Below are positions 1-61,649 of a stretch of DNA of 64,000 nucleotides, in pieces. A model generated the notes under the pieces. That model ran no database searches and was not told the DNA's origin. It worked only from the letters and a program-made list of their open reading frames with translations. Each line of letters starts with the position of its first letter. The first letter of the stretch is position 1. The translations under genes and the position numbers were made by a program. This stretch comes from Escherichia coli (GTDB lineage Bacteria; Pseudomonadota; Gammaproteobacteria; Enterobacterales; Enterobacteriaceae): assembly GCF_045037415.1 (NCBI RefSeq), contig NZ_CP173438.1; one strand, written 5' to 3'.

Positions 1-695
1 ATTACCGCCGCTTCCAGCGGATCGACATTGCGCGACACAATGCTTTGTAATGCGGTGGTGATATGTGCGGCAACCAGCACTGGATCGATGGCTTTGTGCG
101 GGATCGCACCGTGTCCGCCACAACCACGAACCGTAATATGGAACTGATCCATTGACGCCATCAGCGCCCCAGGCTGGAAGAAAAACTTGCCGACCGGCAA
201 ACCCGGCATGTTGTGCATCCCGAAAATGACATCGCAGGGGAAACGATCAAAAAGCCCCTCTTTAACCATGATCTCACCGCCGTTAATCATCTCTTCCGCT
301 GGCTGGAAGATAAGGCGTAACGTGCCGTTAAAACGGCGGGTTTCGGCAAAATAACGCGCGGCCCCCAGCAGTATGGTGGTATGCCCGTCATGCCCGCAGG
401 CGTGCATTAAACCAGGATGTTTACTGGCCCAGGGCTTGCCACTATTTTCATAAATCGGCAACGCATCCATATCCGCCCGCAGGCCAATACTTTTCTCTCC
501 GTCGCCCACTTTTAACGTGGCTACCACGCCGGTTGTCGCCAGCCCTTGCTCAACCTCATAGCCCCACTGGCGCAGCTTTTCCGCAACCAAAGCACTGGTT
601 TTAAATTCTTGTAATCCCAGCTCCGGGTTTTCGTGGATCTGATGGCGGATCTCGCGAAGTTCTTCCTCAAACCCACGAATATAGTGTTCGATCAT
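1..695 (-). CDS. M20D-family amidohydrolase (hippurate hydrolase/aminoacylase-like), N-terminal ~231 codons; 3' end lies beyond window start
   Basis: Manual reverse-strand translation from ATG at 693-695 gives MIEHYIRGFEEELREIRHQIHENPELGLQEFKTSALVAEKLRQWGYEVEQGLATTGVVATLKVGDGEKSIGL...; metal-binding signature MHACGHDGH encoded at 381..407. Absent from the ORF track because no stop lies inside the window. Confidence 0.7.
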   Translation of the reverse strand, partial: MIEHYIRGFEEELREIRHQIHENPELGLQEFKTSALVAEKLRQWGYEVEQGLATTGVVATLKVGDGEKSIGLRADMDALPIYENSGKPWASKHPGLMHACGHDGHTTILLGAARYFAETRRFNGTLRLIFQPAEEMINGGEIMVKEGLFDRFPCDVIFGMHNMPGLPVGKFFFQPGALMASMDQFHITVRGCGGHGAIPHKAIDPVLVAAHITTALQSIVSRNVDPLEAAV

Positions 696-3420: not shown

Positions 3421-3535
3421 GAAACGGAGCGGCACCTCTTTTAACCCTTGAAGTCACAGCCCGTTTCGAGAGTTTCTCAGCTCGAATAACTAAAGCCAAC
3501 GTGAACTTTTGCGGATCTCCAGGATCCGCTTTTTT
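3421..3535 (+). ncRNA. oxyS: OxyS small regulatory RNA
   Basis: Sequence begins gaaacggagcggcacctcttttaacccttgaagtca and ends with hairpin gcggatctccaggatccgc plus T-tract (3511..3537); divergent from oxyR. Confidence 0.85.
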
Positions 3536-4965: not shown

Positions 4966-5025
4966 AACTCTGTTTCCTTATTTTGAAATTCAATGCCGGA
5001 AAGCTGCGCCTCCGGCCAACAAAAC

Positions 5026-8119: not shown

Positions 8120-8136
8120 AACGTAGGCCAAACAAT

Positions 8137-8174
8137 GTCGGATGCGATGCTTGCGCATCTTATCCGACCTACAC
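8137..8174. repeat. REP element
   Basis: gtcggatgcgatgcttgcgcatcttatccgacctaca, REP-type palindrome downstream of argE. Confidence 0.7.
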
Positions 8175-8420
8175 CTTTGGTGTTACTCGAGGCGATTTTT
8201 TAACATTCCCATAAGTTACGCTTATTTAAAGCGTCGTGAATTTAATGGCGTAAATTCCTGCTATTTATTCGTTTGCTGAAGCGATTTCGCAGCATTTGAC
8301 GTCACCGCTTTTACGTGGCTTTATAAAAGACGACGAAAAGCAAAGCCCGAGCATATTCGCGCCAATGCGACGTGAAGGATACAGGGCTATCAAACGATAA
8401 GATGGGGTGTCTGGGGTAAT

Positions 8421-11254: not shown

Positions 11255-12988
11255 ATGCATTCCACAGAAGTCCAGGCTAAACCCCTTTTTAGCTGGAAAG
11301 CCCTGGGTTGGGCACTGCTCTACTTTTGGTTTTTCTCTACTCTGCTACAGGCCATTATTTACATCAGTGGTTATAGTGGCACTAACGGCATTCGCGACTC
11401 GCTGTTATTCAGTTCGCTGTGGTTGATCCCGGTATTCCTCTTTCCGAAGCGGATTAAAATTATTGCCGCAGTGATCGGCGTGGTGCTATGGGCGGCCTCT
11501 CTGGCGGCGCTGTGCTATTACGTCATCTACGGTCAGGAGTTCTCGCAGAGCGTTCTGTTTGTGATGTTCGAAACCAACACCAACGAAGCCAGCGAGTATT
11601 TAAGCCAGTATTTCAGCCTGAAAATTGTGCTTATCGCGCTGGCCTATACGGCGGTGGCAGTTCTGCTGTGGACACGCCTGCGCCCGGTCTATATTCCAAA
11701 GCCGTGGCGTTATGTTGTCTCTTTTGCCCTACTTTATGGCTTGATTCTGCATCCGATCGCCATGAATACGTTTATCAAAAACAAGCCGTTTGAGAAAACG
11801 TTGGATAACCTGGCATCGCGTATGGAGCCTGCCGCACCGTGGCAATTCCTGACCGGCTATTATCAGTATCGTCAGCAACTAAACTCGCTAACAAAGCTAC
11901 TGAATGAAAATAATGCATTGCCGCCGCTGGCTAATTTCAAAGATGAATCGGGTAACGAACCGCGCACCTTAGTGCTGGTAATTGGCGAATCGACCCAGCG
12001 TGGACGCATGAGCCTGTACGGTTATCCGCGTGAAACCACGCCGGAGCTGGATGCGCTGCATAAAACCGATCCGAATCTGACCGTGTTTAATAACGTGGTT
12101 ACGTCTCGTCCGTACACCATTGAAATCCTGCAACAGGCGCTGACCTTTGCCAATGAAAAGAACCCGGATCTGTATCTGACGCAGCCGTCGCTGATGAACA
12201 TGATGAAACAGGCGGGTTATAAAACCTTCTGGATCACCAACCAGCAGACAATGACCGCCCGCAATACGATGCTGACGGTATTTTCGCGCCAGACCGACAA
12301 GCAGTACTACATGAACCAGCAACGTACGCAGAGTGCGCGTGAATACGACACCAACGTGCTGAAGCCGTTCCAGGAAGTGCTGAAGGACCCTGCGCCGAAG
12401 AAACTGATCATCGTTCATCTGCTGGGTACGCATATCAAGTACAAGTACCGTTATCCGGAAGATCAGGGCAAATTTGACGGTAATACAGAGCATGTTCCAC
12501 CGGGATTAAACGCAGAAGAGCTGGAGTCATATAATGATTATGACAATGCTAACCTGTACAACGATCACGTGGTTGCCAGCCTGATTAAAGACTTTAAAGC
12601 GACCGATCCGAACGGTTTCCTGGTTTATTTCTCTGACCACGGTGAAGAGGTTTACGACACGCCGCCGCACAAAACTCAGGGGCGTAATGAAGACAATCCG
12701 ACGCGTCATATGTACACCATTCCGTTCCTGCTGTGGACGTCAGAAAAATGGCAAGCGACTCATCCGCGTGATTTCTCACAGGATGTTGATCGTAAATACA
12801 GCCTGGCGGAACTGATCCACACCTGGTCAGATTTGGCGGGCTTATCTTACGACGGTTACGATCCAACCCGTTCAGTGGTGAATCCGCAGTTCAAAGAAAC
12901 TACCCGCTGGATTGGTAACCCGTATAAGAAAAACGCACTGATCGATTACGACACTCTGCCGTATGGCGATCAGGTGGGTAATCAGTAA
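11255..12988 (+). CDS. eptC: phosphoethanolamine transferase (LPS core modification)
   Basis: Track ORF trimmed to MHSTEVQAKPLFSWKALGWALLYFWFF (577 aa); membrane N-terminus plus sulfatase-like domain. Confidence 0.9.
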   Translation: MHSTEVQAKPLFSWKALGWALLYFWFFSTLLQAIIYISGYSGTNGIRDSLLFSSLWLIPVFLFPKRIKIIAAVIGVVLWAASLAALCYYVIYGQEFSQSVLFVMFETNTNEASEYLSQYFSLKIVLIALAYTAVAVLLWTRLRPVYIPKPWRYVVSFALLYGLILHPIAMNTFIKNKPFEKTLDNLASRMEPAAPWQFLTGYYQYRQQLNSLTKLLNENNALPPLANFKDESGNEPRTLVLVIGESTQRGRMSLYGYPRETTPELDALHKTDPNLTVFNNVVTSRPYTIEILQQALTFANEKNPDLYLTQPSLMNMMKQAGYKTFWITNQQTMTARNTMLTVFSRQTDKQYYMNQQRTQSAREYDTNVLKPFQEVLKDPAPKKLIIVHLLGTHIKYKYRYPEDQGKFDGNTEHVPPGLNAEELESYNDYDNANLYNDHVVASLIKDFKATDPNGFLVYFSDHGEEVYDTPPHKTQGRNEDNPTRHMYTIPFLLWTSEKWQATHPRDFSQDVDRKYSLAELIHTWSDLAGLSYDGYDPTRSVVNPQFKETTRWIGNPYKKNALIDYDTLPYGDQVGNQ

Positions 12989-13008
12989 TTATCAGCCAGA
13001 TGTTATTT

Positions 13009-13092
<84 letters not shown>

Positions 13093-23644: not shown

Positions 23645-23743
23645 GCCTGATGCGCTACGCTTATCAGGCCTACGCAATCTCTGCAATATAGTAAATTTAC
23701 GTACTTTTGTAGACCGGATAAGGCGTTCACGCCGCATCCGGCA
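23645..23743. repeat. REP pair (BIME)
   Basis: gcctgatgcgctacgcttatcaggcctac and gtagaccggataaggcgttcacgccgcatccggca. Confidence 0.8.
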
Positions 23744-28995: not shown

Positions 28996-29216
28996 AAGGA
29001 AAAGCCGAAGGGCGTCAACCGAAAAATAACCAATGATGGTGAGGAAAAATCAGGGAAGATGAAAAAAACTCATCTTAATTAGAGGCGATAAAAGATTTCT
29101 CTATAGCGCAATCCACCTCGCACGTTTTGACTCATATTCTGACAACACAGCGACACCTGGGCTAATTCGAAAAACAACGTCCTGCCACCGGATGGTGATG
29201 TTAAGGCATCTGATTC

Positions 29217-29238
29217 GGCCTGCGCCCTCGCGTAGGCC
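29217..29238 (-). terminator. imperfect hairpin downstream of the nucleotidase-like gene
   Basis: ggcctgcgccctcgcgtaggcc, 8-bp stem with one mismatch, about 60 bp beyond the minus-strand stop at 29299; no clear U-tract. Confidence 0.3.
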
Positions 29239-29298
29239 GAATACAGGATCTGCGCAATCAACGGGTAACAAACAGTTGAGTCAATTCAGTGCGCACTT

Positions 29299-30852
29299 TT
29301 ATTTGATATCCTTCACGCGCATACCGTTGAGCTGTTCATCCGTAATGGTGTTGCCCGCTTTGAAGTAATCAACCACCGCGTGATAAACGTAATAACCGCC
29401 CGTTGTGTTACGCGCTTTCCCTTCGGTAAAGGCGGTAAAACCATCTCCACCATCAGCAAGGAAACTCTGAGTAGCAATGTGATAAACCGTCGCATCTTCA
29501 ATGGGTTTGCCATTCAAAGTCAGTGTGATTACCCGCTGACCAACCGGCCTGTTGCTGTCGTACTTCATTTCCAGGCCTTTCGATACCTGTAAAACGCCAT
29601 TGCTTAAACTTGCGCCGTGTTCCATCAGACTGCGTAATTGTTTACCCATGAGTTCCATCGTCACCAGTTCGTTGGGGAACGGAAACGTACTGATGACGCC
29701 GCCCATCGTGATCGCCCCTGCGGGGATCTCATTGCGGATACCACCAGAGTTTGTTAACGCCAGTTGGGTGTTTTTACCCGCCGCTACCAATAAAGCGTCA
29801 GCCGCCAGGTTCCCGAGGGAAGCCGATTCACCATAGGCACGTTTTAATTCAACCGGCGATTGCGCCACCGTTTGTTGCACCACTTCATCAAGCTTTTTAT
29901 TCCAGCCGTCGATCACCTGTTTCGTTTGCGGATCGGGCTTCCACTCGTCAGCGTAAATGGTTTTAAGCTCGAAGTTTTTCACCGTAAAATTATGCGGCTT
30001 CTCTTTGTAGTCGAGAACCAGTTTGCCCACATCAATCCCGCCGCTGTCAGTGGAGAGGATGAGCGTATTGCCGACTTTAATCGGTTCCGGCGTACCCACA
30101 TGTGCATGTCCGGTGATCAAAATATCCAGCCCTTTCACCTGACTTGCCGTCTGAATATCTTTATCCAACGCGCGACGCACATCTGTGCCTCCCATACTGG
30201 ACTGGCGGGCTGGAACACCTTCGTGGATCAGGGCGACGGTCAAATCAACCTTGCCTTTGAGTTCATCGATATAACGTTGTAGCCATTTAATTTCATCGCG
30301 CGCTTCAATACCCACGCGCGTGGCAGCAGATACCGTATCATTAAAGGCAAATACTCCGTGCAAACCAATAACGCCTATTTTCACACCGTCTTTTTCGATG
30401 ATGGTATAGGGCTTATCCCAGAATGATTTACTGCTGTTCTGATAAAAAATATTGCCCTGCACAATAGGGAATTTTGCCTGGCTCAACTGTAATAATGTGT
30501 TGTCCCAGCCGTGGTCAAATTCATGGTTGCCTATTGTGACGGCATCAAACGGCATAGTATTCATAATATCGATAATAGCCTTACCTTTGGTCAGGCTGCT
30601 GATATATGGCCCGGTAAAATAGTCGCCCGCATCAAAAAACCATGTCGCTTTATTTTTTGCTTTTTCTTGCTTAACCAGCGTAGTGATATTTGCCCAGCCG
30701 CCAATATCCCGTTTACCGTCAGCGATCCACGGCACTTTATAAGGCTCGACATGTGCATGGAGGTCGTTGGTATAAATGATGGTGACATCTTTAGCGCAAG
30801 CCCAGAATGGCAGTGTTAATGCGATACCCGCAGCAAGTATTTTAATTTTCAT
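29299..30852 (-). CDS. secreted bifunctional metallophosphoesterase / 5'-nucleotidase-family protein (UshA/CpdB-like); not in K-12 at this position
   Basis: 517-aa ORF with signal peptide [20 protein letters not shown]; calcineurin-like motifs [38 protein letters not shown]; C-terminal half consistent with 5'-nucleotidase substrate-binding domain. Confidence 0.8.
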
Positions 30853-30984
30853 AAACAGTCCCTTTCAGTGAGATAAAGGATTGCTACATTACGTTCTGAA
30901 AGACTTATTTATGTGAGAGTAATCACATCCGCAGGGGATAGTTGCCGGACAAAATCAACGACCTTGTGAAATCGTTGGTGATAT

Positions 30985-32115
30985 ATGTCGACTCTGTTTA
31001 CGATTAATGCCTGTAAGTCGTTTGGTTGCCGTAATTTAGGGCAGCCAACATCGACAGATTATAGCTGGCCCGACTATCGACTGGGTTATCCGGCACTGCA
31101 CTGTCGGGCATGTGGCAGTTACCCGCCGTTGTTTGACGAGCAACAATTTCGTGACTGGTTGACAGTTCACTTATCTACTTTTGCAACAGAGAAAGGCCAT
31201 TTTTGCCCGGTATGTTATGGCACAGAGACGATTTGTTATGGTCACAATCCACAGGGTTCGCAACGCATTCAATGCCGTAACTGCAAAAAAGTATGGACAC
31301 CCAAACAATATCAGAAAGAAATAACGACTCCCGAAATAATCGAAACGGTTGCTTTGCTCGTGCCATTTCAGGGAGTCAGCAGCGGGCAGAAACTGTATGT
31401 TTTAATCAGTTTTGATGCTCTTCGCGGTAATATTCTTCATCTTTCTACTAATTACACGCAGCATCAGGCTGGAGAAAGTCTGCATTATCGATACAGAGGA
31501 AATGCAGAACCAGAGTTACACGACAATAATATTGTACAACGCGTTGATATGCGCGAAGCACAATTTCTACGCCGCAGTCAGTTTGATGAAATTCAGTATG
31601 GCAGCGCAGCGCTCAAGCGCAATGCCAAAGGCGCTATTCTGCGTCCGGTTATCACTGCACACGGGCATTTCAGAGTACTGAATATTTTATTCCCTACAGT
31701 AAAAACACATGTAATTTCACACGAGTGTTTTTTAAGAGGTGCCATTATTACGGCCTGGGCTGATCTGTTTCGCCAACAGCAAGGTGAAATTTGGTTTATT
31801 GAAGAGGAAATAGCTGACGATACCGATAATATGCCCTGGCGTTTTCAGGGAAAAACTTATCACGGCTGGTGGAAAAATCAGTGGCAACTCTGGGTTCAGG
31901 GAAAAAATCGTAAAATGGTATGTGCATTAACGGGCGGAAAGAGTAGCAAAGCAGAAATGCTCTCTTTAGCAACCAGCAGACATTTTATCGACTGGCTACA
32001 TAAACAAGCAGTATTTACTCACAGCGCCCCGCTTTCCGCAGGGCGCGTTACGCAAATACTGCTTTCTCTGGCTCAGGATTACAACAACTGCGCCAGTCGG
32101 TTAATATCCGACTGA
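30985..32115 (+). CDS. cysteine-rich zinc-ribbon protein, transposase-like N-terminus (IS1 InsA / IS1595-type zinc finger), C-terminal domain of unknown function
   Basis: 376-aa ORF; CxxC pairs at C10/C15, C40/C43, C74/C77, C97/C100; CPVCYGTETICYGHNPQGSQRIQCRNCKKVW parallels the IS1 InsA CPxC...QRYxCxxCxKxW pattern; hand-estimated GC near 42 percent; last 37 nt overlap the antisense metL 3' end. Confidence 0.65.
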   Translation: MSTLFTINACKSFGCRNLGQPTSTDYSWPDYRLGYPALHCRACGSYPPLFDEQQFRDWLTVHLSTFATEKGHFCPVCYGTETICYGHNPQGSQRIQCRNCKKVWTPKQYQKEITTPEIIETVALLVPFQGVSSGQKLYVLISFDALRGNILHLSTNYTQHQAGESLHYRYRGNAEPELHDNNIVQRVDMREAQFLRRSQFDEIQYGSAALKRNAKGAILRPVITAHGHFRVLNILFPTVKTHVISHECFLRGAIITAWADLFRQQQGEIWFIEEEIADDTDNMPWRFQGKTYHGWWKNQWQLWVQGKNRKMVCALTGGKSSKAEMLSLATSRHFIDWLHKQAVFTHSAPLSAGRVTQILLSLAQDYNNCASRLISD

Positions 32116-36268: not shown

Positions 36269-36327
36269 AGCGGAAAAGAGCGGCGCGGAGTTAACCAGCC
36301 GCTTTTTTCATACATGGACGTTTAACG

Positions 36328-36996: not shown

Positions 36997-37248
<252 letters not shown>

Positions 37249-37252
37249 CTAA

Positions 37253-39610
<2,358 letters not shown>

Positions 39611-41870: not shown

Positions 41871-41934
41871 TGCATTATGCCCCGTACTTTTGTACGGGGT
41901 TTGTACTCTGTATTCGTAACCAAGGGGTCAGCTC

Positions 41935-42465
41935 GTGACAACTATAGTAAGCGTACGCCGTAACGGCCATGTGGTCATCGCTGGTGATGGTCAGGCCACG
42001 TTGGGCAATACCGTAATGAAAGGCAACGTGAAAAAGGTCCGCCGTCTGTACAACGACAAAGTCATCGCGGGCTTTGCGGGCGGTACTGCGGATGCTTTTA
42101 CGCTGTTCGAACTGTTTGAACGTAAACTGGAAATGCATCAGGGCCATCTGGTCAAAGCCGCCGTTGAGCTGGCGAAAGACTGGCGTACCGATCGCATGCT
42201 GCGCAAACTTGAAGCACTGCTGGCAGTCGCGGATGAAACTGCATCGCTTATCATCACCGGTAACGGTGACGTGGTGCAGCCAGAAAACGATCTTATTGCT
42301 ATCGGCTCCGGCGGCCCTTACGCCCAGGCTGCGGCGCGCGCGCTGTTAGAAAACACTGAACTTAGCGCCCGTGAAATTGCTGAAAAGGCGTTGGATATTG
42401 CAGGCGACATTTGCATCTATACCAACCATTTCCACACCATCGAAGAATTAAGCTACAAAGCGTAA
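41935..42465 (+). CDS. hslV: ATP-dependent protease subunit HslV
   Basis: 176-aa [27 protein letters not shown]. Confidence 0.97.
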
Positions 42466-48508: not shown

Positions 48509-48516
48509 TAATGATT

Positions 48517-48552
48517 GCCTGATGCGACGCTTGCGCGTCTTATCAGGCCTAC
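48517..48552. repeat. REP element
   Basis: gcctgatgcgacgcttgcgcgtcttatcaggcctac. Confidence 0.8.
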
Positions 48553-48678
48553 GAGTCGGATACACATCCGGCATCACGCAGACTCTGAAACCGTGCGGGG
48601 GCAACCCCGCACACATCAATAATCCCGCCCTTCCCCTGTGCTACACTTCGCGCCATTCCTTACTGCTTAGAGTTTGCT

Positions 48679-53518: not shown

Positions 53519-53572
53519 GTCTGACAGGTGCCGGATTTCATATCCGGCACTTACTTTCCTAAACTCCTCGCC

Positions 53573-55589: not shown

Positions 55590-55687
55590 GCCGGATGCGG
55601 CACAAACGCCTTATCCGGCCTACAAAAGTTTGCAAATTCAATAGATTACAGAATTCATGTAGGCCTGATAAGCGAAGCGCATCAGGC
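55590..55687. repeat. REP pair (BIME)
   Basis: gccggatgcggcacaaacgccttatccggcctaca and gtaggcctgataagcgaagcgcatcaggc. Confidence 0.8.
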
Positions 55688-58587: not shown

Positions 58588-59286
58588 ATGAATAAAATCC
58601 TGTTAGTTGATGATGACCGAGAGCTGACTTCCCTATTAAAGGAGCTGCTCGAGATGGAAGGCTTCAACGTGATTGTTGCCCACGATGGGGAACAGGCGCT
58701 TGATCTTCTGGACGACAGCATTGATTTACTTTTGCTTGATGTAATGATGCCGAAGAAAAATGGTATCGACACATTAAAAGCACTTCGCCAGACACACCAG
58801 ACGCCTGTCATTATGTTGACGGCGCGCGGCAGTGAACTTGATCGCGTTCTCGGCCTTGAGCTGGGCGCAGATGACTATCTCCCGAAACCGTTTAATGATC
58901 GTGAGCTGGTGGCACGTATTCGCGCGATCCTGCGCCGTTCGCACTGGAGCGAACAACAGCAAAACAACGACAACGGTTCACCGACACTGGAAGTTGATGC
59001 CTTAAGTCTCAATCCTGGTCGCCAGGAAGCCACCTTCGACGGGCAAACGCTGGAGTTAACCGGTACGGAGTTTACCCTGCTCTATTTGCTGGCACAGCAT
59101 CTGGGTCAGGTGGTTTCCCGTGAGCATTTAAGCCAGGAAGTGCTGGGCAAGCGCCTGACGCCTTTCGACCGCGCTATCGATATGCACATTTCCAACCTGC
59201 GTCGTAAACTGCCGGATCGTAAAGATGGTCACCCGTGGTTTAAAACCTTGCGTGGTCGCGGCTATCTGATGGTTTCTGCTTCATGA
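58588..59286 (+). CDS. cpxR: envelope stress response regulator CpxR
   Basis: 232-aa ORF MNKILLVDDDRELTSLLKELLEMEGF (OmpR family). Confidence 0.97.
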   Translation: MNKILLVDDDRELTSLLKELLEMEGFNVIVAHDGEQALDLLDDSIDLLLLDVMMPKKNGIDTLKALRQTHQTPVIMLTARGSELDRVLGLELGADDYLPKPFNDRELVARIRAILRRSHWSEQQQNNDNGSPTLEVDALSLNPGRQEATFDGQTLELTGTEFTLLYLLAQHLGQVVSREHLSQEVLGKRLTPFDRAIDMHISNLRRKLPDRKDGHPWFKTLRGRGYLMVSAS

Positions 59287-60656
59287 TAGGCAGCTTAACC
59301 GCGCGCATCTTCGCCATCTTCTGGCTGACGCTGGCGCTGGTGTTGATGTTGGTTTTGATGTTACCCAAGCTCGATTCACGCCAGATGACCGAGCTTCTGG
59401 ATAGCGAACAGCGTCAGGGTCTGATGATTGAGCAGCATGTCGAAGCGGAGCTGGCGAACGATCCGCCCAACGATTTAATGTGGTGGCGGCGTCTGTTCCG
59501 GGCGATTGATAAGTGGGCACCGCCAGGACAGCGTTTGTTACTGGTGACCACCGAAGGCCGCGTGATCGGCGCTGAACGCAGCGAAATGCAGATCATTCGT
59601 AACTTTATTGGTCAGGCCGATAACGCCGATCATCCGCAGAAGAAAAAGTATGGCCGCGTGGAACTGGTCGGTCCGTTCTCCGTGCGTGATGGCGAAGATA
59701 ATTACCAACTTTATCTGATTCGTCCGGCCAGCAGTTCTCAATCCGATTTCATAAACTTACTGTTTGACCGCCCGCTATTACTGCTGATTGTCACCATGCT
59801 GGTCAGTACGCCGCTGCTGTTGTGGTTGGCCTGGAGTCTGGCAAAACCGGCGCGTAAGCTGAAAAACGCTGCCGATGAAGTTGCCCAGGGAAACTTACGC
59901 CAGCACCCGGAACTGGAAGCGGGGCCACAGGAATTCCTTGCCGCCGGTGCCAGTTTTAACCAGATGGTCACCGCGCTGGAGCGCATGATGACCTCTCAGC
60001 AGCGTCTACTTTCTGATATCTCTCACGAACTGCGCACCCCGCTGACGCGTCTGCAACTGGGTACGGCGTTACTGCGCCGTCGTAGCGGTGAAAGCAAGGA
60101 ACTGGAGCGTATTGAAACCGAAGCGCAACGTCTGGACAGCATGATCAACGATCTGTTGGTGATGTCACGTAATCAGCAGAAAAATGCGCTGGTTAGCGAG
60201 ACCATCAAAGCCAACCAGTTGTGGAGTGAAGTGCTGGATAACGCGGCGTTCGAAGCCGAGCAAATGGGCAAGTCGTTGACGGTTAACTTCCCACCTGGGC
60301 CGTGGCCGCTGTACGGCAACCCGAACGCCCTGGAAAGTGCGCTGGAAAACATTGTTCGTAATGCTCTGCGTTATTCCCATACGAAGATTGAAGTGGGCTT
60401 TGCGGTAGATAAAGACGGTATCACCATTACGGTGGACGACGATGGTCCTGGCGTTAGCCCGGAAGATCGCGAACAGATTTTCCGTCCGTTCTATCGGACC
60501 GATGAAGCACGCGATCGTGAATCTGGCGGTACAGGTTTGGGGCTGGCGATTGTTGAAACCGCCATTCAGCAGCATCGTGGCTGGGTGAAGGCAGAAGACA
60601 GCCCGCTGGGCGGTTTACGGCTGGTGATTTGGTTGCCGCTGTATAAGCGGTCATAA
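59283..60656 (+). CDS. cpxA: envelope stress sensor histidine kinase CpxA
   Basis: 457-aa ORF; H-box SHELRTPLTRL; 4-bp overlap with cpxR. Confidence 0.97.
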   Translation: MIGSLTARIFAIFWLTLALVLMLVLMLPKLDSRQMTELLDSEQRQGLMIEQHVEAELANDPPNDLMWWRRLFRAIDKWAPPGQRLLLVTTEGRVIGAERSEMQIIRNFIGQADNADHPQKKKYGRVELVGPFSVRDGEDNYQLYLIRPASSSQSDFINLLFDRPLLLLIVTMLVSTPLLLWLAWSLAKPARKLKNAADEVAQGNLRQHPELEAGPQEFLAAGASFNQMVTALERMMTSQQRLLSDISHELRTPLTRLQLGTALLRRRSGESKELERIETEAQRLDSMINDLLVMSRNQQKNALVSETIKANQLWSEVLDNAAFEAEQMGKSLTVNFPPGPWPLYGNPNALESALENIVRNALRYSHTKIEVGFAVDKDGITITVDDDGPGVSPEDREQIFRPFYRTDEARDRESGGTGLGLAIVETAIQQHRGWVKAEDSPLGGLRLVIWLPLYKRS

Positions 60657-60679
60657 CGTCAACCTTCAGGTAAAAAAAT

Positions 60680-60816
60680 GCCTGATGCACTACGCTTATC
60701 AGGCCTACAAAACCTGTTGAATTTATGGGTTTTGTAGGCTGGATAAGGCGTTTACGCCGCATCCGGCATTTGAGCAGGATGCCTGATGCGACGCTGATAG
60801 CGTCTTATCAGGCCTA
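60680..60816. repeat. BIME cluster of three REP elements
   Basis: gcctgatgcactacgcttatcaggcctac; gtaggctggataaggcgtttacgccgcatccggca; gcctgatgcgacgctgatagcgtcttatcaggcctac. Confidence 0.85.
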
Positions 60817-60826
60817 CACTCCGGGG

Positions 60827-61501
60827 TTATTTTCCCCACAAACGGCGGGAAAAATCTTCGATCTTGCCGCTCAGTCGGCGCTTTTGCATCGTTCGCGTCC
60901 AGCTTTTCGATAACCCTGCAACGGAGAGTAAACGGTGATACTGATCGTCATCAAACGGCATATGCCATGCGATGGCGGCAGCCTCCTGCACGGTCACATC
61001 GCTGACACGGGAAACCAACTCCAGTGGCGCATCAGCAGATACCAACCCTGGTGCAATTACGCTATACAACCACCCCACTTTACCCGTGTTTTGCATCAAC
61101 TGCGCTATATCGCTGATATCAAAATGGTAATTGAGTTTATAGCAAGGTGAGCGTGGCTGGCTGACCTGAATTAATGCCTCTCCCCAGCGGAAAATATCAC
61201 CAATATAAACATTACTTTCCGTCAGACCGTCGGTTGAGAGATTTTCGCCAAACGCAGGCGCAACAAACAGCTCCGCCTGTTCCGGAAATTCCCGCGCCCA
61301 GTAGAGATAATGCTCACGAGGATAATGACACAGCGCTCTGTCTGGCCCGCCGTGGATCTTTTTCTCCGCCTGTTCGTCACCTTCCAGCCCCAGGTCCGTC
61401 AGCATCAACTCACCATCAACCTGGATTTTGGCAATTGCGCTGGGTTTGCCTTCGGGATAAGCCTGAATCTTGCCTGTGTATACATCAACCGGATATCGCA
61501 T
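60827..61501 (-). CDS. yiiM: MOSC-domain protein (N-hydroxylated base analog detoxification)
   Basis: Track ORF trimmed to MRYPVDVYTGKIQAYPEG (224 aa); synteny. Confidence 0.85.
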   Translation of the reverse strand: MRYPVDVYTGKIQAYPEGKPSAIAKIQVDGELMLTDLGLEGDEQAEKKIHGGPDRALCHYPREHYLYWAREFPEQAELFVAPAFGENLSTDGLTESNVYIGDIFRWGEALIQVSQPRSPCYKLNYHFDISDIAQLMQNTGKVGWLYSVIAPGLVSADAPLELVSRVSDVTVQEAAAIAWHMPFDDDQYHRLLSVAGLSKSWTRTMQKRRLSGKIEDFSRRLWGK

Positions 61502-61649
61502 CTGTTCCCTCTCCACGAGAAATTTCCCCATTAGACCATATTTATTTTATGTCAGGCGTGCTGTTTTCGCGGTAAGTATCCAGGCAGAAACGCAATTGAA
61601 AACCGGACGAACGTTAGTTCATCCGGCTGTGGGGATTAAGGAAGCTGGT

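Follow-up and report, generated by a model that had tools for sequence, protein, structure and literature searches.

The convergent spacer between cpxA and yiiM in this Escherichia coli chromosome is filled by three REP palindromes that form an ordinary E. coli atypical (chimeric) BIME, a three-unit allele of the K-12 element REP301. We consider the element, with a probability of roughly 0.8, to be a canonical BIME that works as a two-way 3'-end hairpin block, a role drawn from the literature, and whose units were seeded and reshuffled by RAYT. The sequence, unit types, hairpins on both strands, extragenic 3'-end position, orthology to K-12 and polymorphism come from the present analysis, and the function is taken from published work.

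The window, by which we mean the whole 64,000-nucleotide stretch that was analysed, runs from an M20-peptidase gene and sthA through rhaT and is inverted relative to K-12 coordinates 4.10-4.16 Mb. Gene order was taken from the RefSeq annotation, and each gene coordinate was verified by translation. Strain SK1144 is 100% identical to the window over the cpxA-yiiM region. Rfam features elsewhere in the window include the OxyS sRNA, the L31 leader upstream of rpmE and the ClpQY (hslVU) promoter element (3421-3530, 37216-37268, 41880-41937). The cpxA/yiiM spacer measures 170 bp, and the three REPs that an initial annotation had described there as a BIME downstream of cpxA lie where it placed them; its span of 60680-60816 starts correctly and stops short of the real end at 60817. 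Unit types Z1, Y and Z2 were assigned from unit length and the G/T-C/A stem pair, which gives the following arrangement:

59283-60656, plus strand: cpxA, context gene; last sense codon TCA, against AGT in K-12-type alleles
60672-60678, plus strand: A7 run, which reads as a U7 tract on the minus strand, one base past the Z1 hairpin; kept as A6 in E. albertii and Escherichia sp. MOD1
60680-60708, plus strand: Z1-type REP, 29 nt, GCCTGATGCACTACGCTTATCAGGCCTAC; covariance model 48.6 bits; hairpin -11.1 kcal/mol; missing in K-12
60709-60733, no strand: tail-to-tail linker, 25 nt; short form of the BIME-1 'L' linker; IHF-consensus match with 2 mismatches
60734-60767, minus strand: Y-type REP, 34 nt, GCCGGATGCGGCGTAAACGCCTTATCCAGCCTAC; covariance model 59.5 bits
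60768-60780, no strand: head-to-head linker between Y and Z2, 13 nt; aligns to the naRNA4 model linker and differs from it in sequence
60781-60817, plus strand: Z2-type REP, 37 nt, GCCTGATGCGACGCTGATAGCGTCTTATCAGGCCTAC; covariance model 56.7 bits; hairpin -21.8/-21.4 kcal/mol
60827-61501, minus strand: yiiM, context gene, convergent with cpxA; the Z2 stem begins 13 nt past its stop codon

The palindromes belong to the REP family. With up to 2 mismatches allowed, the window contains 12 copies of the REP tail motif CTTATCMGGCCTAC where 0.53 would be expected, and none of 100 shuffled sequences reached 12. We derived a covariance model from the window's 11 canonical REPs and searched all 64,000 nucleotides with it unfiltered; these 11 scored 47-60 bits, and the next best match reached 20.8 bits. 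Because this model was trained on the window itself, two independent checks weigh more: the K-12 annotation of REP301, and the Rfam model naRNA4 (RF02564), which matches 60737-60814 over model positions 1-77 of 77 with 82 bits against a gathering score of 59.5. K-12 REP names are those of the Harris 2026 supplement; the RefSeq K-12 feature tables carry no REP features.

The build and setting of the units are those of REPs as well. They are imperfect palindromes of 29, 34 and 37 nt, in keeping with the 30-40 nt of the family, and all three end in CCTAC, so that the CTAC/GTAG foot is present. Every one of the 11 window REPs has the stem mismatch, a G-T pair followed by an unpaired C/T (alignment columns 12-13 / 29-30); the stem cells of the window REPs are paired in 97.6% of cases, and four pairs have changed on both sides. 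All 11 lie outside genes in tandem or convergent spacers and none in a divergent one, which agrees with the extragenic, mostly 3'-terminal position of REPs. Chance matches, or ordinary gene-specific terminators outside the REP family, would account for hairpins at gene ends and for nothing beyond that; we give this reading practically no credence, since it is refuted by the motif enrichment, the model scores and the dozens of matching places per genome (median 20 per E. coli genome, 901-bp query). The initial annotation had called these features ordinary for E. coli, and as canonical REP/BIME sequences they are.

The order Z1, short L linker, Y, 13 nt, Z2 makes the element an atypical BIME. 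It shares with the atypical BIMEs of Bachellier 1994 and Ton-Hoang 2012 the mixture of Z1, Y and Z2, the presence of both BIME-1-like and BIME-2-like linkers and the alternating orientation; it is a single small array, whereas the described ones are often multi-copy (Ton-Hoang 2012). From BIME-1 (RIP/RIB: Z1, L linker with IHF site, Y) it has the tail-to-tail Z1-Y pair and the TTGAATTT core of the L linker, but the linker is 25 nt instead of about 35 nt, the IHF consensus is weaker, with 2 mismatches, and Z2 is attached as a third unit. It falls outside BIME-2 as well, a class that consists of Y and Z2 alone with short linkers and mostly comes in tandem, whereas here there is one Y-13 nt-Z2 unit with a Z1 attached; the K-12 allele of the same element would qualify as a minimal BIME-2. 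With REPIN/RAYT systems (Pseudomonas, E. coli REPtrons) it shares an inverted REP doublet foldable as one long hairpin, and the GTAG foot and stem mismatch are present; no RAYT gene was found within the window. The closest paralogue of the Z1-25 nt-Y part lies in the hemN-yshB spacer of many E. coli genomes, at 91.5% identity (O103:H2 segment 1498-1593), so BIME-1-like pairs with the short linker constitute a small subfamily.

The match to RF02564 raises the idea that the Y-Z2 unit is a gene for an naRNA4-like RNA that binds HU and condenses the chromosome. The model represents the Y-linker-Z2 unit of REP325, the naRNA4 of Qian 2015, and the full-length match at 82 against 59.5 bits with the same head-to-head order would fit that idea. 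In effect, however, the model describes any Y-linker-Z2 BIME unit. Here there is one unit rather than a tandem, its linker sequence is unrelated to that of REP325, and it is known as a sequence match, not as a separate RNA; moreover, REP325/naRNA4 gave no measurable nucleoid compaction and REP-REP contacts were undetected (Harris 2026). We regard an RNA gene of this kind as very improbable.

A main role at the level of DNA would place a gyrase site on the Y of the Y-Z2 part, an IHF site between Z1 and Y, or both, with the element shaping supercoiling. Its setting, a spacer between convergent genes where positive supercoils build up, suits such a role; an excess of gyrase cleavage sites is seen in BIME-2, mainly on Y units (Sutormin 2018), and BIME-1 L linkers often carry IHF sites (Ton-Hoang 2012). 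Yet gyrase binds only some BIME-2, in the main multi-copy ones (Sutormin 2018), and a single Y-Z2 is present here, while the linker falls 10 nt short of L and has 2 mismatches to the IHF consensus against 1 in canonical L linkers. Gyrase or IHF binding at the cpxA/yiiM copy is thus possible but less likely, and a main role of this kind appears rather unlikely.

Each of the three units folds as the expected hairpin on both strands (-11 to -22 kcal/mol), and the whole spacer folds with z = -7 and -8; in these folds the Z1 and Y tails pair with each other. The U7 tract after the Z1 hairpin on the yiiM-sense strand looks like a candidate intrinsic terminator for yiiM read-through. Liang and Deutscher (2015) reportedly found that translation is lowered, through ribosome stalling, by REPs within about 15 nt of a stop codon; the Z2 stem begins 13 nt past the yiiM stop, and the first stem begins 23 nt past the cpxA stop here and about 15 nt past it in K-12. 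A strict terminator scan of the cpxA/yiiM spacer returned nothing, which leaves no other terminator-like site there; the scan comes up empty because REP stems contain a mismatch. Weak Rfam matches in the spacer (mir-5856, mir-BART19 and others) were set aside as noise, as they lie far below their gathering scores.

In the two-way 3'-end block that we favour, the convergent cpxA and yiiM transcripts would both read into the REP cluster, where the stable hairpins would pause or terminate RNA polymerase, in part Rho-dependently, and would block 3'-to-5' exonucleases. Such a block would insulate cpxRA from yiiM and set both 3' ends. We propose it because the Harris 2026 supplement lists the Z2 hairpin of K-12 REP301 as a bidirectional terminator, in log as well as in stationary phase, because convergent gene pairs with REPs between them show higher expression on both sides and REP325 is a partly Rho-dependent terminator and mRNA stabiliser (Harris 2026), and because the spacer holds no other terminator-like site. 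On its minus strand the window is identical to that K-12 hairpin at 60776-60817; the listing concerns the two-unit allele of K-12. Against a 3'-end block stands the finding that REPs act differently according to context and bring no genome-wide gain in mRNA half-life (Harris 2026). No paper naming both cpxA and yiiM came out of a literature search on terminators.

The REP units themselves would originate from the TnpA-REP/RAYT tyrosine transposase and would have been reshuffled by it together with REP-REP recombination. TnpA-REP cleaves and recombines BIMEs in vitro (Ton-Hoang 2012), and its sequence requirements, the GTAG, the stem mismatch and an adjacent inverted REP, are all present. Such reshuffling and recombination would lead to alleles with 0, 1, 2 and 3 units at the site, and alleles of each of these kinds were observed.

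The K-12 site holds Y-13 nt-Z2 only, in a 105-bp spacer; this two-REP allele occurs in 4,700 of 5,426 complete E. coli genomes, and the three-REP allele in 540. Of the two, K-12 REP301 has orthologous Y, 13-nt linker and Z2 units, with linker and Z2 identical, and the window adds Z1, the 25-nt linker and the A7 run, 65 bp in all; the Y unit has an intact GTAG in the window and GCAG in K-12. EcN, a strain of phylogroup B2, carries the K-12 allele. Another 161 genomes have a REP-free allele, a 255-bp spacer with a different GC-rich dispersed repeat, and REPs at cpxA/yiiM are therefore dispensable. A fourth allele has one hybrid REP and looks like the product of a Y/Z2 REP-REP deletion.

In E. 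coli 21AH057 the REP-free spacer (segment 658-912) contains an inverted pair of GC-rich CCCTCACCC..CCCTCTCCC repeats, which occupy a median of about 5 places per genome and appear to resemble 'box C'. A similar GC-rich repeat follows cpxA in Superficieibacter electus.

The junctions of the alleles differ as far as the last sense codon of cpxA (60651-60656), which reads TCA in the allele with three REPs and AGT in those of the K-12-type, single-REP and REP-free kinds, so the polymorphic block starts inside cpxA; the CpxA protein is unchanged between alleles (same WP_000580417.1). E. albertii and Escherichia sp. MOD1-EC7003 have the three-REP architecture, the same cpxA end (TCA TAA) and the A-run, and Citrobacter and Superficieibacter species have TCN or GCN at the last codon. 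From this comparison the three-REP haplotype looks old, and the AGT-TAA junction found in the remaining E. coli alleles seems to be derived. Simple deletion from the window allele does not account for the K-12 allele. A derivation of the K-12 junction AGTTAAAC... from the window's CGTCAACC... by point changes was dropped as unconvincing, at 9 of 13 bases matching by eye.

Much of this variation would also be expected if the cluster were purely selfish or neutral, a relic of RAYT spread and REP-REP recombination in a harmless gap with no local function. Polymorphism at the site is high, and strains have 0, 1, 2 or 3 REPs there or else an unrelated repeat; the K-12 Y unit has GCAG for GTAG; and the E. 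albertii copy, whose Z2 reaches 30 bits, is decaying, which speaks for weak selection. Five of 8 window loci have a REP count other than that of K-12:

argE-ppc (8120-8420): 1 REP here, 6 in K-12
metF-metL: 0 REPs here, a decayed copy in K-12
metJ-yiiX (36269-36327, 59-nt spacer): 0 REPs here, 2 in K-12 (BIME-1)
glpK-glpX (48509-48678): a full Z2 here, only a decayed Y in K-12
cpxA-yiiM: 3 REPs here, 2 in K-12

On the other side, the three-unit architecture is common to E. coli, Escherichia sp. MOD1 and E. albertii, stem pairing is kept by compensatory changes, and the K-12 hairpin is listed as a terminator. We see a purely neutral cluster as a real but minor possibility. The variation agrees with published accounts in which BIMEs contribute heavily to intergenic polymorphism and serve as IS1397 targets.

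The alleles might instead be functional 3'-end variants of cpxRA/yiiM, with CpxA and YiiM levels that differ by REP turnover alone. The three-REP allele would add the Z1 hairpin and the U7 tract, and would move the first hairpin from about 15 to 23 nt past the cpxA stop; the replaced block would reach the last codon of cpxA and leave the protein as it is. We think such functional divergence between the alleles quite unlikely.

REPs occur at five further loci of the window, and all six positions listed in the initial annotation (8137, 13009, 23645, 48517, 55590 and 60680) hold canonical REPs:

8137-8172, plus strand: lone, slightly degenerate REP in the argE-ppc spacer; stem pairing kept by two compensatory changes
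13009-13090, both strands: REP pair in the eptC-yijO spacer (13009-13045, plus; 13057-13090, minus); empty site of the SK1144 IS1397 insertion
23645-23742, both strands: BIME-1 in the gldA-yijF spacer (Z1 23645-23673, plus; 35-nt L linker; Y 23709-23742, minus)
48517-48552, plus strand: Z2 REP in the glpK-glpX spacer, with a truncated Y remnant (about 48556-48580)
55590-55687, both strands: BIME-1 in the pfkA-sbp spacer (Y 55590-55623, plus; 35-nt L linker; Z1 55659-55687, minus)

The recurrence of REP pairs that had been claimed for the window is found at three of these five loci, while 8137 and 48517 are single REPs. The further claim that REPs lie mostly at convergent gene ends did not survive the classification of the 56 window spacers: five of the six loci lie between co-directional genes, cpxA/yiiM alone is convergent, and the 10 divergent spacers have none.

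The L linker of the pfkA-sbp BIME-1 carries an IHF-like site and a borderline Rfam match to the sRNA ES036 (CssrF) at 55625-55666 (37.9 against 37.6 bits); the ES036 family seems to model a BIME-1 linker. In SK1144, an IS1397 element (IS3 family; 11592-13023 of the compared segment) sits exactly in the loop of the 13009-13045 REP with a 3-bp TGA duplication, in keeping with the known REP-loop specificity of IS1397. The equivalent point in the window is 13024-13026. Short CCGGA...TCCGG hairpins at 53529-53547 (tpiA-cdh) and 61601-61626 (kdgT-yiiM) are identical to K-12 REP303 and REP300; they are without the canonical REP foot, were absent from the initial list, and in the covariance search the REP303 copy scored 11.9 bits and the REP300 copy gave no match at E up to 10. 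The sole non-canonical match above noise in the window is a REP-like hairpin at 4991-5022 (TGCCGGA...TCCGGCCAAC; 20.8 bits, E=0.0016), which lies between argB and argH of the argCBH operon, in a spacer of 60 nt.

Two segments had been singled out as free of REPs, and their emptiness had been read as consistent with foreign origin:

29068-32078, no strand: accessory segment between metF and metL, REP-free; a 5'-nucleotidase gene and a gene without Pfam match
696-1024, no strand: AT-rich divergent promoter spacer between the M20-peptidase gene and sthA, REP-free

The absence itself holds. Looking specifically for REPs inside the metF-metL insert, we found no canonical one over 29068-32078 with the covariance model (best match 7.4 bits, E=8.4), and the same model found none in the AT-rich spacer. 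As evidence of foreign origin this carries no statistical weight, since at 6 loci per 64 kb the chance of zero REPs in both segments comes to 0.72 for the DNA as a whole, 0.53 when confined to non-coding DNA and 0.75 for eligible, non-divergent spacer DNA. The comparison of REP density inside and outside the candidate insertions likewise showed no difference, with a Fisher test on REP occupancy of the spacers at p=1.0. The two genes of the insert are divergent and the second overlaps metL, so that it offers one eligible REP spacer only. The AT-rich spacer, as a divergent promoter region, is not a place to expect REPs in any case; in K-12, divergent gene pairs account for about 1% of them (Harris 2026).

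What marks the insert as accessory DNA is its genome distribution (1,840 of 5,426 complete E. coli genomes) and its G+C of 0.45-0.49, not its lack of REPs. The K-12 metL-metF spacer, which has no insert, contains a decayed Y REP, REP306 (K-12 4132345-4132384, 27.5 bits), inside the roughly 200 nt that the insert replaces (window junction near 29068). The polymorphism is a replacement and not a pure insertion, and the presence of REP306 in K-12 goes mildly in the direction of the earlier claim. At the start of the window lies the Peptidase_M20 gene (1-695, minus strand; Pfam E=2.7e-29), divergent from sthA, where in K-12 fabR adjoins sthA; this end may be another strain-variable segment.

REPs and BIMEs, their Y, Z1 and Z2 types, their polymorphism between strains and their targeting by IS1397 have been known since the 1990s, and the element described here is known biology; by itself, the cpxA/yiiM BIME is of little consequence. 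Where a 3-kb segment or a divergent promoter spacer lacks REPs, this should not count as evidence of foreign origin. The occurrence of 0, 1, 2 or 3 REPs at one convergent junction is a natural allelic series, usable for the terminator/stabiliser model of REPs.
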